Of a DNA stretch of 64,000 bases, positions 22,447 through 30,400 are shown piece by piece. Each line of letters begins with the position of its first letter. Positions within the stretch are counted from its first letter, which is position 1. The notes beneath the pieces are model-generated. The model was not told the DNA's origin. It saw only the letters and a program-made list of their open reading frames with translations, and did not search any database. Source of the stretch: Sphagnum compactum (lineage: Eukaryota); contig OZ234493.1 of the NCBI GenBank assembly GCA_965153455.1, forward strand, positions 30,432,213 through 30,496,212. The letters are read 5' to 3'. Position numbers and translations under genes: made by a program.

Positions 22447-23701
22447 TAGGAATTAAGGAGCTTTACCAACAAAGATAGATTGGTGAGGGAATTTTCTTGT
22501 GTCAGCAGTCATTGGCATTTCATGTTCTCAAGCCCAGCTTCTGGCTGTAAAATTCTTGTGAAGAGCATAGAAGAAAGGTTTTGTATCAGAGGCTTTGACA
22601 TCGCACAATCTGCAATTCAACCTCCCTCTAATGCTTGTGATTGTTCTGCACTATCCTCTGCAGCTTGACTGAGAGGGTAAAGTCTACTACTGTCATGGAT
22701 CCTTTTCTCTAGTCCACTTTCAAGGAATGAGTTTGTCATGTATTTTGCATTGTTATTTGTGCTGTGGCCTTCTTTCCCCTTTCTGAGTTTGTGGTTCAAC
22801 TTACTAAAAGAGCTTGCAATTGTGCAGTCTTAACTGTTGTACGCTGCAACATCTTTGGTCTTTATTACTCTGTCGAAAAGACTTGGCTCTCCTGATCCAG
22901 AAGACTCTGGCCACTTCCTATGCATTTCCAGTTTTTTGTGAGAACCTGCAAAGCAAGTAACAGCATTCAGACTGGATGTGCACACTTAGGATCCATCTGT
23001 GAGAACACTAACAATGCTGCACTCATACACATAGGTGTCAACACTCATTTGAGGTTGACTAAAACTTGGTCCATACAGAGGCAGTGTGACACATCCAACC
23101 TATGTTTGTTTTCTCAGTATTTCTGTCAGCTCTATGATTAAGAATAATGATCAATATCAGCCACCCTGGAAAGCACAGCATTCACTTTTTAAATAAGGTT
23201 TGCACATAGCTTTTTCCTTCTAGAAATTTCAAGTTGCATGAGAGTTACATACCTTTCGAAACTCCAGCACAAATCTCTAGTAACCACACATTGCAATAGT
23301 TTGCAGTAAAGTTGGTTGGACTTGCATATCTGAGATGTGATACAATTGCTTGGATTAAACTGGCACTGGATCGCACCAGAATGATATGGACACTCTTACT
23401 GTGGGGAGTTGATGGCCCCAAACAAGTGGTCTTGGCATTTATAATCCTGACCATTTGCAAAGACTTCATCATCTCTGAGTAAGGCTACTTAGGCTGAGAA
23501 ACTACATGTGAGAATTATAAACCAGCTACTAGCTTTAACATGGTCAGACTTAACAAGTACCCAGTCTTCCATGTTGCTGGAAACAACTTAGTTTCTACAA
23601 AAATGCTTGTGCTTGTCTGCACAGATTTCAGCAGACAAACAACTATGTGTTAAAAAATTGAGGTGTGGAGATAATCCAAGTCACTGCCTCCCTTTGATGT
23701 C

Positions 23702-26682
23702 TCAAATGGCAGCAACAGAACTGTCTGAGGCAGACATACTGGCAGCTTCCTTTACCACTTCAGAGCTTGAGCTTGCTGCTTCAATCTGCTCAATGGTGAA
23801 GTTGTGGTTGGTGTATATGCAACAGTCTGCAGCTATCTTCATTGCTTTTCTTGCTGCAACAAACCCAAGACCCCACCCATCACATCAGTGCTGAAATGAT
23901 GCATGCACTACAATCACCATACAGAAATTTCCTAAAGAGCATGGGAGACAATCAGGATATTGCATGCATGACAATTCCTGACAGACCCCTTAAAGAATTG
24001 CCTGCATAAGTAAGAAGTGGAATTGAAGTCAGGAACCAAGCACACTGACCAATTGTCTCTGCATCCATGTCAGGAAGATCAAGAAGAGCTCTAGCAGCTG
24101 CCAATGCATATGAGCCTCCTGAACCGATACCTGTGATAATCCCCATTCCACCTCAGAACATCATCCATGTGCTCCTCATCCAAACCAACAGACTAATGCA
24201 GTTCACCCAATTGATTGTAGGAATGGTAAAGGCACAATGATTCAGACACAGACAAACACAGTGATCAAGGAAATCTCCTCACCTATAACACCATCATAAG
24301 GCTCCAGAACATCACCATTTCCTGTAATTGTTAAAGAAACCTCAGCATCTGCCACCACCATGACAGCCTGCATCCACCCCAACCTGATCTCTTTCAGTAC
24401 CCACAGCACCTCAGTCAACCAGAATCTGATTGCATAATTTGATAGCATCACAACATTGAGCTGTTAGTGATGGGACAGGACATTCAAAAAGGACATCAGC
24501 AAGCTTTTACTTCTACATCTACAACAAGAACCTCGAGGAAAAGGAGACTAATGACAAACAAACACACCATCTACAAAAAGAGAGGCTTGGGAGGTGGGAG
24601 GTGGGTCCTAATGCTGATGAGGATGCTATTAGGGCCTACAACAATATGCACGCTAGATATAGAATGCGAGTGGAGCGCACATCAAGACGTCTCAAAAACT
24701 TGTCAGAGCGCCAAGCTTTAGCCAGCTCCACTGCAGCACGTGTCAGCTGCCACCAAAAGGGTTCTCATATCAGTGACCAGCTGACCATCCTTATTACTCC
24801 ACTTGCTCTTCCAGATGGGCAGCTACTGTGGCAGAGCTACGTAATTCATAGAACAGAGCTCTGTGAAATACAACACAGGTAAAATCTCAAACACAGGTAC
24901 AGCCAGAGACAGGTCATTCTGCATCTTTATACCTGCCCTGCAACCAAAGCACCACCAAATGCAAATTAGCATTAAAGATTGCTCTACTAAACTTTCAGAT
25001 GACAAGAAATAAGTGCTGATGATGATAGGATGGAGAATCCAGAAAGGAAGGAAGCCAAATACCAGAATGCTCCTCGAGCTTGGTCTCCAGCCTTTCAAAA
25101 AGAGTGAAGGAATCTGCAGTTGCACCTACAGAACCCAGCTGAACCCATCAGCCACTTTCACTTCACTACTGTTAGTAGAGCCTTTTGACCATTCCATTGT
25201 TCATCATAAACATAACCTCCTTCCACAGAGGCTCAGGCAGAGATTGTGCAAGTGAGGCACACACATTTGTTCCACAATTGGTGGCTCCTTACATGAGGTC
25301 AGGTCACCAGCTTCACAATCACTATGCCTCTCCCAGTAGTTCTGGATAAGTCCTGGTTATTGGCCATCCCAGGAAAGTCAATCGAAGCTAGATGACTGAT
25401 TTGACTACAATCCAAATAAAGATTCTTTCAGTTCAAAAACACAGTGCCAAATATGTTGGATAGGTAGAGGGGCAGTAGCCAGCAAACCTGCAAAGCCACC
25501 AATGACATTTTCCCCGAGTCTGCGAACTTTTCGCACATTAGGTTTGATGATTTCAGCACCTTGTGTCACCTGACCATCTCCAATCATCACAACATTCGCA
25601 CCCTTGCGAACACAAAGGACTGTGGTGCCCAGCATACCCCTGTTGGTTGTGTGCATGTGCCTCCAACTGCCACAATTTCTCAGACTCTTATTTTAGGGTT
25701 TGAGCTAGCTCAAATGTGAATCCAAAACCAAAACATCTACCTTATCTTCCAAAACTTGCTGCTGGATGGAGTTAGCACATTGACAACATAACAATATATC
25801 AAGATGGAAAAACAGAACCATCTGGTCATCAATAACTTCCACAAAACCTCTCCAAGATCAAGAGTGAAGATTTCCAAAACCCCAGGCCTTCCACAAATTG
25901 CACAGAAATTTAATCTTGTCCACAGAAAAGAAACATACTATTAAGAGCTTTATGCGATCTGTGAGAGATGTGATACTTTTGCCTAAAATCCCTCAGATGC
26001 ACAGATTGGCTCCAAGATCAAAATCAATGCAATCTTCAATCAAGAATAATATGAATACCTGCTGTTGATGGTTGGAGGAAAAGGGCAAACAATCTGCAAA
26101 CCCTTGCACATATCCTCCAATCCCTGCAATGTTCTTTGGGTTCCACATCCTGCAAAACGGGCTATCAGAAAATTTCTGCAATCACTGGCCCTCTGTCTGT
26201 CTGTCTGTCTGACTGACTTTCTGTCTCTGTCTCTCTATCTCGATCTCTCAAAACCTTAAAAGGTATTACGATATCGAGGCCGTGGCATCTGACAGGAATG
26301 ACAGGAAACTGACAGAAGCAAAAGAGAGATATACAAACAATTGAAGAAGGATCCAAGCACTTCACAAGAGATTACAGCTTCTCGAATACCGGCATGTTCC
26401 TTTTGTCAGTTTTACCTGACCAGAGACTTTATTTATTCAGAAGTTGCAAACCTTGCCAGAGGGGGAAAAAAAAAAAAAAAAACTCGCCAGGAATATTTCG
26501 CAAAGGATTAATAAGAAGAAGACCGTACGACGACTTGTAGAGCAACACATTCAAAACAAAAATTGTGAGAGAGTTGATCAAGAAAGCAGAAAAAACTCCG
26601 CAAAAAATTCGTCAGTAGAGAAGGCAGGCTACTTACTTGTAAGAAGAAGAGCAGCGGTTCGCCACAATGGGCCGCTGGCCAT
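23702..26682 (-). CDS. HslV: ATP-dependent protease subunit HslV (ClpQ), Ntn-threonine peptidase with about 59-aa N-terminal presequence; 255 aa
   Basis: Exons (-): 26682-26637, 26149-26059, 25666-25488, 25125-25063, 24937-24933 (5-nt microexon), 24746-24681, 24367-24283, 24130-24050, 23853-23702; total 768 nt. The predicted mature N-terminus is TTVLCVRK (Thr codon 25626-25624). Family motifs: [86 protein letters not shown]. The ATG is in gccATGG context and the presequence begins [16 protein letters not shown]. Confidence 0.93.
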
Positions 26683-26769: not shown

Positions 26770-27400
26770 TCTCTATGGCTCCCTCGATGCTTGTTCCAAT
26801 CTGGAATGGTCTGTCCACTGACCGTTCCGGTCTGGAATGATCTGTGGTGACCATTCTACGTTGGAGTAGTCTTCTTCTGCCTTCATGGGCTGGCCAAATC
26901 CAGAAAGATAAAATCGGCGCTTCTCTCTAATTGCTCTGTCGATGCTTATTCCACTCTGGAGTGGTTTTTCTACTGACCGTTCCAATTTGGAATAGTCATC
27001 TTCTTCCTTTATGGGCTGCCAAATCCAAAAAGGTCAAATCGGCCCTTCTCTCTCTTGCTCCCCTGATGCTTGATCTTTTTTGGAATGGTCTGTCCCTGGA
27101 CCGTTCCACTTTGCAATAGAATTCTTCCTTCATGGGCTGCCACAATCCAGAACGGTAATACCAGAGCTTCTCTCTATCGCTCCCCTAATGCATATTTCAC
27201 TCTGGAATGGTCTATCCACTGACTGTTCCACTTTGGAATAGTCTTCTGCCTTCATGGGCTGCCAAAAAATCCAACGAGAGGTAAAATCAGTACTTCTCTC
27301 TGCTTGCTCCCTTAGTGCATGTTGCAATCTGGAATGATCTGTCTAGTGACCATTCCACTTTGGAATAGTCTTCTTTTTTCCTTCATGGGCTGCCAAAATC
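26770..27400. repeat. Tandem array of about five 120-130 bp units, each with a 9-bp inverted repeat
   Basis: The anchor (C/T)T(C/T)ATGGGCTG recurs at about 26881, 27008, 27128, 27250 and 27381. The dyad GGAATGGTC-N8-GACCGTTCC or a variant starts at 26803, 26834 (6-nt loop), 26958, 27082, 27204 and 27331. Confidence 0.85.
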
Positions 27401-30400
27401 GCGAACAAGACAATTCTGATTCTCCTTGGAATGTTTTGTGTCGCCAAGGCTCCAAACGTGCTCATCTTCTCACAGAAATCTTGTCTCGCATTCTCGCTCA
27501 CGAACAAGACATTCCAATTCTCCTCAGAATGTTTTTTGTCGCCAAGGCTCCAAACGTGCAAAGGACTCTCGTCACGCCTACTACTGTTTGCATGATTTTG
27601 TCGGTACCAAATTGTTGTTGTCATCTGAAAAGACTTTCTCGAGTCTCAATTGCGAAGGTTTCGTTGTGGTAGAGGAATTTGGACTCGAAGCTGCCACAGT
27701 AGCACCAAAGTTCTAGGTTCCATTTCTGGGGCTTGGATCCAGGAGACTGACTTGAGGAGCTCTACGGGCACACACACACACACACACACACAGATAAAGA
27801 ATCTTAGGGAGCAAGAGTTGATTTGCAACTGCATGCCTTTTGGATTTGGAAGGTAAGGCTACAGATGGATTCGTCTTCTGTGAGAGACACACACAAAGAG
27901 CGAGAGGGGACGCAATGGATGAGAACAGAAAGCAAACATGAGTGACTCGGATTTTTCGCACAGCGGTGGATTTCGCACCTTTCGCCAGATATCACGAAAT
28001 TGGCAGTGTTTCTCTTCCCCCCTTTCTTAGAGAATCCAGAAAATGAATGACATGGGTAGCACTGCAGGAGAACGAGAGCTGGTCCACTTTGGATCTACTA
28101 CATCCTTTATTTCAACTCGCAAACCCCTTTGAGCTTCTAATTTTTGTCGGGGGTACAAAAGGTTTTGCAAAACAAATCAGATTGATGCAGAAAGATGATG
28201 ATGATGATGATGATGATTCACCCCAGCATCCTGTGCATCATAATCATTTGAGGGATTTGAGGATTGCAATTGATTTTTGGACAAGCTTGAGGACTTTGGG
28301 TTCTTCTTTGAGTCAGCTCCTTACATCAGAGTTTGAGAGATCTGGTTCAACTTGGTCTTGCTGTAAAATTTCCATTGATATTGGTAGGAGAAGGTGTTGG
28401 CTTGTTGGAAGCTAGAAGGATTTGTAACTTTGATATGATTTGCTATATTTTGAAACTTTGATGATGTAGGCCTTCTACAGGAGATGCTGCATGCAGCAAG
28501 GAAAGGAAAAGGATTGGTAGAATGGAAGGTGTGTGATCTCTTTTGACTCCTTTCCCCTAACTCCCTCAATTTATTGAGCTATGAATAAATCTCCTTCCAT
28601 TGTTTGAGTTGTGTAAAACATCAAGTTGTAAAACACTAGAGGAAAAGATACTACTTTGTTTTCACCTTCCCAGTACAATCAAGAGAAGCCTAATAACCTA
28701 GTTGAGTTTTGATGGCAGAATTAGGAGATTTCATGTGGTGATGCTCCATTGGTGTGAGGTTTGATTGTAGTTTATTATCATGAATGAAGTTATTGTGAAG
28801 GTGATGTCATGCTTTTGCAAGATGGCTGATATCATTGATAAAGGCATCTCCTGTAAGCCTTGTTTCTCTGACATATACATTGCATGTTCTTGTTGCAATG
28901 ATAAACTCGTTAACAATTTGATTGTCAGTTTTAGCAATAGAAAGTTTTTCCCCTCTGTACTCAAAGAGGATGTGATGCATACCTATGCAGTGATTGGATC
29001 ATTTCTAGTACTTGACATGTTTTGCAATGGTTGAAAATCTCAATAAATGGAGGTAGCCACTACTTGCTCTTGATGTTGTTTACTTTATCAAGCCTTCGAG
29101 AGAGAGGTGGGTTGTGTAGTTTTCAAACACCCCATCTTTTCATCTTTGGTTTCTGGAATGTTGAATGTTAAAAGTTTGTAGAGATTTAGAAATGGTTCTC
29201 CCTATGTCTGTGTAATGTAAGGCAATTCATGCAGGACATGTCAAGGAAATCACTTTTTTATAAGAACTGGGTGTTCAATCCTAGTACATGACATCCTCAT
29301 TGGCACAACGATAATAGATTCAACACCTTGTGTTGCCCCATGTGGAATCTTAAACCACATCCACAATGGTCTATTTTTGTTGACATTCTCCAACCTTAGA
29401 AGCCAGGAGCACAAGCAAACATGACATATAATTGTGTGCAGGTTAGGGTTTAAAGAAAGGTCTGTGGAAGGAGTTTAACATCCTATATATTAAAAAATGG
29501 TTGCAATTTTGTTAAGGAGGCAAGTTGGAGATGCTTTCATGTACACCTACAAGCAAATTGGAAATTCATTTTTCATCATCTAGTCTCTTATCCTATTACA
29601 GCTCTTCTCCACCTCTCTTTTGAAACATTTATCAAAATTTTCTTCAATTTTTTTCTTTTCAATCGCCTTCCTTGTTGCAATAGAGATAAGCATTTCAATT
29701 GTTTGCCATTGTAGTTGCGTTTGGTAAATTATCAATGCAAAACCTTCTATTGATCTGCACAAGTGAATAAAACAACTACTAAAATTTTAGGAAAAATTTT
29801 TTTTGGGCCAAAAGTTTTGTTAGATTTTGATAATTTTATGGTGTTGGACCTTGATGTAGTTTTTTTTGTGTTTGATGCCATACAATTTGGACTTGTTTTT
29901 TGCAAAAGCATTGCCAATTCATGCTAAATTGTTTTTCGGTTGTTCATTAATGATGAGATTCATTAGGATATTGGATAAATAAATGGGAGATAGTCCTTAA
30001 AGAATCACATTTGAAATTTCAATTTTTTTGGGTATTCACAGGAAACTTGAATGCATGATGCATTTGAAAAGTGGTTAACCATGGGATAACAATGATCCAA
30101 ATGTGACAATTATTGCATTTACATCCTTGGAATATGTAAAAGTCTACATAAGGATCATTAACAGATGCCATCCAACAAATGTCCCTAGCCAAGGAATGTC
30201 CTTCTAAAAATTGTAATTACATGAACGAATTTTATTCCATCATCCAGGAAAATTTGTCCATATTCATTAAAAAAATCATCCATTCATCAATTGAAAATTC
30301 ACAAATGAGATTTTTTGGATAAATATTCATCCATGGAATTGGGATAATTTTAATGCTAAAAACTTGTGGAGTTGGCAACTTTAAAATGCAAGCATGCTAA

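Follow-up and report, generated by a model that had tools for sequence, protein, structure and literature searches.

A nuclear gene for the protease HslV (ClpQ) in a Sphagnum peat moss comprises nine exons, and the fifth of these is very probably only five nucleotides (nt) long. The gene lies on the minus strand of the window, a 64,000-nt stretch of the Sphagnum compactum genome (assembly GCA_965153455.1, contig OZ234493.1, positions 30,432,213 to 30,496,212). We propose that GGCAG at 24937..24933 of this window is a constitutively included coding microexon, exon 5 of 9, that is joined to its neighbors by sequential splicing. The proposal draws on direct observations of the sequence anatomy, the content of the messenger RNA (mRNA), the use of the acceptor in front of the microexon, and the unequal retention of the two introns that flank it. 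When the pentamer is counted as an exon, 8/8 introns of the gene have GT-AG ends, and the spliced product is a full HslV of 255 residues.

A phase mismatch filled by five nucleotides

The exons on either side of the pentamer cannot be joined to each other without a shift of reading frame. Exon 4 terminates in ...GAGCATTCTG at 25063, followed on the minus strand by GT at 25062-25061, and exon 6 opens with CTGACACGT at 24746, directly after GGTGGCAG. A preliminary description of this DNA, made from its letters alone, had read the first exon as ending in phase 1 and the second as starting in phase 0, and the sequence confirms both phases. Between them the minus strand carries TTGCAG, GGCAG and GTATAA in succession, giving the pentamer canonical AG and GT flanks. 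The positions assigned at that time to the microexon, to its flanks and to a possible GAG acceptor (24765-24764) all hold on the minus strand. The elements of the site are as follows.

25063..25125, minus strand: exon 4, 63 nt, ending ...CATTCTG in phase 1
24938..25062, minus strand: intron 4, 125 nt, with GT and AG ends and 42% T; a CTAAT sits about 29 nt upstream of its 3' end
24933..24937, minus strand: proposed exon 5, the 5-nt microexon GGCAG, which completes a Gly codon and supplies Gln
24747..24932, minus strand: intron 5, 186 nt, GTATAA..GGCAG, partly retained; the retained form reads GQV-stop
24747..24751, minus strand: second GGCAG copy, which forms the final 5 nt of intron 5
24764..24765, minus strand: AG of the GAG acceptor, chosen in six public Sphagnum models and without RNA support here
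24681..24746, minus strand: exon 6, 66 nt, starting in phase 0

Translation bears out the claim that the five nucleotides are required for the HslV frame: inclusion keeps the frame and omission shifts it. The skipped product is truncated before the C-terminal half, the loss that had been foreseen. The pentamer had also been said to restore the conserved HslV sequence, and it does so. Solved HslV structures align ungapped here, and the residues G127 and Q128 are invariant in 11/11 aligned plant and algal sequences. A gapless HslV core with G-Q/H before the L(T/V)(R/K)AAVELAK helix is obtained only with the microexon included.

Shuffling the 316-nt interval 20000 times gives a chance estimate that separates the splice motif from its coding content. 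Any AG-N5-GT arose 14914 times, an AG-N5-GT encoding G and then Q or H arose 264 times, and AGGGCAGGT arose 12 times. The bare motif thus arises easily by chance, unlike the specific coding solution. Another AG-N5-GT, at 24807..24803 (AGCAA, which would give EQ), was considered and set aside, as the reads do not use it.

The five letters are present in mature RNA and the microexon acceptor is used

Three RNA data sets cover the site: raw poly(A) RNA reads (X24, 313 aligned) and metatranscriptome contigs from two studies (X1 and X2). A joint was listed only if at least 3 reads from 2 starts, or a contig, carried it. In X24, 22 reads with 12 different starts contain the junction TCTG-GGCAG-CTGACA, which had been named beforehand as the one to look for in complementary DNA; X1 and X2 each add one contig, at depths of 98.7 and 49 respectively. 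Another four X24 reads stop at 24751, and their overhangs agree with the last bases of exon 4; a JGI contig-derived protein (P0004) also reads GQ. In mature mRNA, GGCAG lies between TCTG and CTGACA.

The alignment itself shows how this microexon escapes notice. Aligners had been predicted to slide onto the downstream GGCAG, and the main junction was indeed placed at 24750->25062, skipping 311 nt with non-canonical plus-strand ends CA..TA. The slide arises because the last five letters of intron 5 repeat those of the microexon.

Partly spliced molecules reveal the acceptor that the aligned main junction conceals. An intermediate joint, 25063->24937, removes exactly intron 4 (125 nt; aligned 24936->25062, cut +1, plus-strand CT..AC). 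Three X24 reads from 2 starts show it, each with at least 58 nt on either side of the joint, as does one X2 contig from a separate study (depth 6.6, with 28 nt on its shorter side). In these molecules exon 4 continues across GGCAG into GTATAA... and intron 5 is still present, and so the acceptor before the microexon is used.

Read depth shows the same asymmetry. X24 depth is 0.07 over 24935-25023 in intron 4; over 24757-24934 in intron 5 it is 8.79 and 6.96, compared with 16-33 in the exon bins on either side. In both X1 and X2, a 177-nt contig over 24762-24938 ends at the microexon acceptor, the point at which the spliced and unspliced paths diverge. Intron 3 (25126-25487, 362 nt) is also partly retained, with X24 depth of 3.7-4.8, and the other introns have depths of 0-2.7.

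Alternative joints were not found at the listing threshold. Among the 313 aligned X24 reads and the X1 and X2 contigs, no joint to 24763, the position served by the GAG acceptor, was listed at a threshold of 3 reads. Transcripts using that acceptor had been named in advance as the outcome that would overturn the microexon, and none is listed in any of the three sets. A skipping joint 25063->24746 is likewise not listed in X24, X1 or X2 at the same threshold. All X24 pairs share one orientation, giving no antisense transcript. A further data set, X18, has an even depth of about 103-111 across exons and introns alike, and it therefore behaves as DNA of a close relative (about 98% identity). We discarded it as conservation evidence, because that identity is too near to inform on a 9-nt element.

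Order of intron removal

Combining the intermediate with the retention pattern, we propose a two-step splicing route. The T-rich 125-nt intron 4 would be removed first, joining TCTG to GGCAG. The resulting composite exon of 68 nt would then offer CAG|GTATAA as an ordinary donor, which would pair with the acceptor at 24747 so that the 186-nt intron 5 is removed. If this second step is the slower one, a fraction of poly(A) RNA would keep intron 5 and reach a stop after GQV. As a kinetic rule, this order of intron removal is something that we infer. Intron 4 is the most T-rich of the four introns measured (42% T vs 30-34%).

The sequence of intron 5 suggests how the acceptor at 24747 might be chosen. 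CTGAT lies 22 nt before it and is the likely branch site. Acceptor choice generally depends on the distance between branch site and AG, and the GAG acceptor, only about 5 nt beyond CTGAT, may be ignored for that reason.

Sequential splicing of mini-exons, in which exon, intron and exon are handled stepwise, has precedents in a vertebrate troponin mini-exon and the 9-nt mini-exon of potato invertase. The likeness is that an exon too short to hold acceptor and donor complexes together joins one neighbor first, and the composite splices on. The HslV case differs in that the upstream intron goes first, to judge by the 3 reads and 1 contig of the intermediate and by the unequal depths.

Many public gene models fail at the same site

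Deposited gene models often go wrong exactly where the microexon sits. The survey covered 32 genome-derived streptophyte models, with the divided Closterium NIES-68 gene counted once; 16/32 read G-Q at the site, and the other 16/32 are wrong exactly there. They read as follows.

G-Q, mosses: S. fallax (2), S. magellanicum, Ceratodon (2), Physcomitrium A0A7I4AX41 and XP_024395504
G-Q, others: Riccia fluitans, Diphasiastrum, Selaginella, Ceratopteris (2), Closterium Naga37s-1 (2), Chara, Mesostigma
EPFWSQ: S. jensenii (2 models), S. troendelagicum, S. tenellum
EPFWWQ: S. balticum, S. compactum
GNVWQ: Physcomitrium PNR40855 and XP_073394976
GKTS: Marchantia Mp_6g16250
GQLTRA missing: Riccia sorocarpa, Adiantum
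Run into the intron and stop: Spirogloea (2 models), Closterium NIES-53
Split into two genes at the site: Closterium NIES-68
Six extra residues (VRTLFS) right after GQ: Klebsormidium (P0107)

Sequences assembled from contigs behave differently from the genome-derived models, with G-Q in 20/20 of those inspected (Logan, TRINITY, MMETSP, JGI). Among contig sequences, a Marchantia-like one of 273 amino acids reads G-Q and is otherwise identical to the Marchantia model. The published S. compactum model equals the window protein except for an EPFWW insertion and a different C-terminus, and this similarity means that the model nearest to the locus uses the GAG acceptor that RNA does not support. Loss of GQLTRA is what one would expect if a predictor took the next phase-compatible AG within exon 6.

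The breaks recur in Physcomitrium, Marchantia, Riccia, Adiantum, Spirogloea, Closterium and Klebsormidium. This pattern of failure is what a conserved gap between phase 1 and phase 0, filled by a microexon, would produce. It suggests, at the level of protein models, that the microexon reaches back to Zygnematophyceae, and we regard it as probably an ancient plant feature. Two Micractinium models (P0151, P0165) read S-W-Q where their relatives read S-G-Q; this and the Klebsormidium insertion may each reflect either another misplaced boundary here or a genuine change.

The Sphagnum models also bear on which GGCAG copy is coding. Five public Sphagnum models read EPFWSQ where the window would read EPFWWQ. 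No Ser codon has GG at positions 2-3, and the EPFWSQ species must therefore lack GGCAG in front of exon 6. In these species, it would appear, only a microexon can give the invariant Gly.

We also considered whether the two GGCAG copies are the target-site duplication left by an intron gain, or mark a mobile introner, and found this unsupported. Neither intron has a further copy in the 64-kb window, where only chance matches of 12-17 nt occur. GCAG is the usual plant acceptor. The duplication reading was rejected because other Sphagnum must differ at the downstream pentamer, because no other intron copies exist in the window, and because GCAG is so common an acceptor.

Weighing the alternatives

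Could the junction instead result from one intron of 311 nt whose 3' end is non-canonical (GT...GT, or TA...TG as aligned)? The pentamer at 24937..24933 would then be a cryptic acceptor giving rise to a dead-end, intron-retaining by-product. The aligner itself places the main junction at 24750->25062, and a one-intron and a two-intron gene yield the same mature mRNA. Such an intron would, however, have non-canonical ends, and its 5' site GTATTTGG lacks the ATCCTT box of U12-type introns. GT...GT and TA...TG ends are not known to fit any spliceosomal class. Assignment to the U12-type class was tried and failed on both the recognized terminal dinucleotides and the 5' box. Coverage is also against it: 24935-25023 is almost uncovered and 24757-24934 stands at 7-9, so the supposed by-product would have to be the sole unspliced species. 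Nor would a single intron lead one to expect that 16/32 streptophyte models fail at exactly this phase mismatch, or that Gly is invariant at a position where, in the EPFWSQ species, the adjoining pentamer cannot be GGCAG. The microexon copy is favored because the intermediate occurs in two independent data sets, because intron 4 is nearly absent while intron 5 persists, and because two introns are canonical throughout where one intron needs GT..GT. We consider the single intron very unlikely. A still less credible alternative makes the GAG acceptor the source of the true major transcript, encoding an HslV longer by 4 residues (EPFWW or EPFWS replacing G). That acceptor is in frame, ends in AG and was chosen in 6/9 public Sphagnum models (S. 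compactum, S. balticum, S. jensenii, S. troendelagicum, S. tenellum). Set against this are zero listed joints to 24763 compared with GGCAG in 22 reads and two contigs, the gap-free alignment of solved HslV structures, and an AG only about 5 nt past CTGAT, the likeliest branch site of intron 5. We give it almost no credence.

A different question is whether the site acts as a switch, in which skipping of the microexon (frame shift) or retention of intron 5 (GQV stop) gates HslV by stress or development. In poly(A) RNA no other intron is retained as much as intron 5 (depth 7-9 vs 0-4.8 for the others), which is kept in both metatranscriptomes too, and both alternative products stop before the C-terminal half. 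Against a switch, the skipping joint is not listed in the one poly(A) set (X24) or the two mixed-community sets (X1 and X2), and slow removal of an intron behind a tiny exon suffices to explain the retention. We therefore find a switch of this kind unlikely. The earlier idea of a splicing on/off point did not survive: no skipping joint is listed, each of the three RNA data sets shows inclusion, and the sole non-productive form seen is retention of intron 5. Inclusion of the microexon looks constitutive, and regulated retention of intron 5 is a modest possibility. In its fullest form, which we think improbable, intron 5 would be a rate-limiting, regulated retention step at which transcripts wait or are destroyed after the GQV stop, setting the amount of organellar HslV, and loss of the gene in seed plants would have removed the device.

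Several points weigh against the microexon as we have described it. The mature mRNA is identical whichever GGCAG copy is used, and the case for the upstream copy rests on 3 reads and 1 contig of the intermediate, the depth asymmetry and splice-site canonicity. Removal of intron 4 alone is observed in those 3 reads and 1 contig, and removal of intron 5 is deduced from the end product. The RNA sets did not show the complementary joint, 24933->24746 in a molecule that retains intron 4, as would be expected if intron 4 leaves first. The species label of X24 may differ from the organism of the window: 196/313 reads are at least 99% alike and 117/313 are 95-99% alike. X1 and X2 are contigs from mixed mosses. 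Use of the GAG acceptor or skipping at a rate below about 1/10 of the approximately 25 junction reads would escape listing. Finally, support for deep conservation from other genera is indirect, through protein models.

HslV identity and predicted targeting

Profile searches place the gene in the HslV family. They used P0003, the S. fallax orthologue (98% identical, with few residue differences from the window protein outside its alternative C-terminus), together with translations of exons 3 and 9 from the window. P0003 scores 258.9 bits on NF003964 (cutoff 137) and 248.6 bits on TIGR03692 (cutoff 157.75), both HslV equivalog models. The exon 3 translation matches these NCBIfam models at 52.9 and 49 bits and the exon 9 translation matches the HslV C-terminal end at 25.3 bits, the two falling at the expected opposite ends of both profiles. 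From Thr-Thr 60-61 through its C-terminus, P0003 aligns to E. coli and other solved HslV chains (E ~1e-58). This Thr-Thr, aligned to residue 1 or 2 of the solved chains, is invariant in 25/25 aligned sequences.

Moss and bacterial or mitochondrial HslV are therefore alike in their equivalog-level NCBIfam match and in a gapless alignment to E. coli and H. influenzae chains from Thr-Thr to the C-terminus. They differ in that the moss gene is nuclear, has nine exons, and encodes a 59-residue extension that would need removal to expose the predicted catalytic Thr. By analogy only, the 59-residue leader before the predicted catalytic Thr may be a mitochondrial presequence. A passage of one study lists Chlamydomonas HSLV1 among mitochondrial chaperones and proteases (10.64898/2026.04.02.716084), and HslUV is treated as mitochondrial in part of another (PMC7050145). 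Moss HslV, a bacterial-type Thr protease, is probably imported into mitochondria.

A metagenome scan with the plant HslV alignment kept 80 loci of 589 matches. All were contiguous over about 520 nt, intronless and bacterial-like. Across residues 59-230 of the moss protein their products reach 59-70% identity to it, which would fit descent of the plant gene from a bacterial (mitochondrial-ancestor-like) one.

Exon map and neighboring features

The nine-exon map was built from RNA junctions and upstream genomic sequence. Outside the microexon site it comprises the following exons.

26637..26682, minus strand: exon 1, coding part, with ATG at 26682..26680 and donor GT at 26636-26635; begins the N-terminal extension
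26059..26149, minus strand: exon 2, 91 nt, part of the putative presequence; a joint skipping 392 nt is carried by 21 X24 reads and by X1 and X2 contigs; AG/GT flanks
25488..25666, minus strand: exon 3, 179 nt, end of the putative presequence and the HslV N-terminus; RNA joints and NCBIfam match
24283..24367, minus strand: exon 7, 85 nt; joints skipping 313 and 152 nt
24050..24130, minus strand: exon 8, 81 nt; joints skipping 152 and 196 nt
23702..23853, minus strand: exon 9, coding part, with stop TGA at 23704..23702; the 3' untranslated region extends below 23600

The end of exon 1 matches the consensus of the loose ends at 26149 in X24, X1 and X2, and its translation is identical to the N-terminus of public Sphagnum models. 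At the other end of the gene, the main open reading frame of the mRNA probably stops at TGA 23704..23702, as in P0063 and P0068. Poly(A) depth is unbroken at about 58-66 over 23600-23866, and no loose end is listed near 23740 in the RNA alignment, whose aligned stretch ended at 23600. In four public Sphagnum models (P0003, P0061, P0062, P0066), the last exon is spliced onward within the minus-strand interval 23400-23760. Their alternative C-terminus, ...EVFANGQDYKCQDHLFGAINSPQ, is encoded in the window near 23500-23400.

Repeats occur within and upstream of the gene. A tandem array with a 122-nt unit (4.5 copies, 75% matches) occupies 26831-27397, about 150 nt upstream of the start-codon region, and could be promoter-proximal repeat DNA. 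Intron 1 contains a (CAGA)n run at 26195-26215, and upstream of the gene, at about 27775-27800, there is a (GT)n microsatellite. At 24582-24613 in intron 6, X18 contigs break and depth rises to 275-557 from about 105 elsewhere, which suggests a short element within intron 6 that recurs in the relative's genome.

A new member of a known microexon class

The HslV microexon is a well-supported addition to a known class, not a new kind of element. Conserved plant coding microexons of 1-15 nt are described in portions of Yu et al. 2022 (PMC8831610) as misannotated in the form of small indels, extended exons, non-canonical junctions and missed motifs. Portions of Feng et al. 2024 (PMC11096116) trace plant microexons to Zygnematophyceae and report, for a Peptidase M1 gene, two paired exons of 5 bp and 12 bp, and, for APC11 and VPS55, exons of 1 nt. 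The HslV microexon resembles these ultra-short microexons in several respects. It is an internal coding exon of at most 15 nt with canonical flanks, needed for both frame and conserved motif. It is often missed by annotation, which then yields small indels, extended exons, non-canonical junctions or split genes. And it is apparently old, spanning Zygnematophyceae and land plants. It differs in its gene family, HslV, which is seemingly absent from the seed plants on which the published predictor was mainly trained, and in that its downstream intron ends in the microexon's own five letters, hiding it from aligners.

HslV and proteasome are absent from the main texts of PMC8831610 and PMC12409088, as distinct from their full microexon tables, which include Physcomitrium. 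HslV, Proteasome, PF00227 and GGCAG are likewise absent from one part of the PMC8831610 supplement, as distinct from its full list of 2,398 microexons that includes P. patens, where the Physcomitrium orthologue may already be entered. Our literature search returned nothing published that joins HslV with a microexon, and the query microexon and Sphagnum returned only a Zygnema genome preprint. Correct proteins are already public for S. fallax, S. magellanicum and one Physcomitrium isoform.

Recognizing the microexon corrects the structure of a conserved, probably organellar protease gene for which half of the models examined (16/32) are wrong at the site. The mis-modeled cases include six from Sphagnum, the Marchantia reference model and the newest RefSeq Physcomitrium model, and the errors add, delete or truncate residues of the protein core. 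The gene contributes a microexon family beyond catalogues centered on flowering plants, as well as read-level evidence on the order of intron removal around a 5-nt exon. Because its downstream intron ends with the same five letters, it also provides a hard, clean test case for microexon-aware aligners.

The finding further bears on the distribution of HslV. The protease seems to have been lost from, or to be absent in, seed plants: none appears among the best 120 of 7990 hits, which is weak evidence. Mosses, liverworts, lycophytes (Selaginella, Diphasiastrum), ferns and charophytes encode it. A passage of PMC7050145 states that plants lack HslUV. For non-seed land plants, which encode HslV, that statement does not hold.

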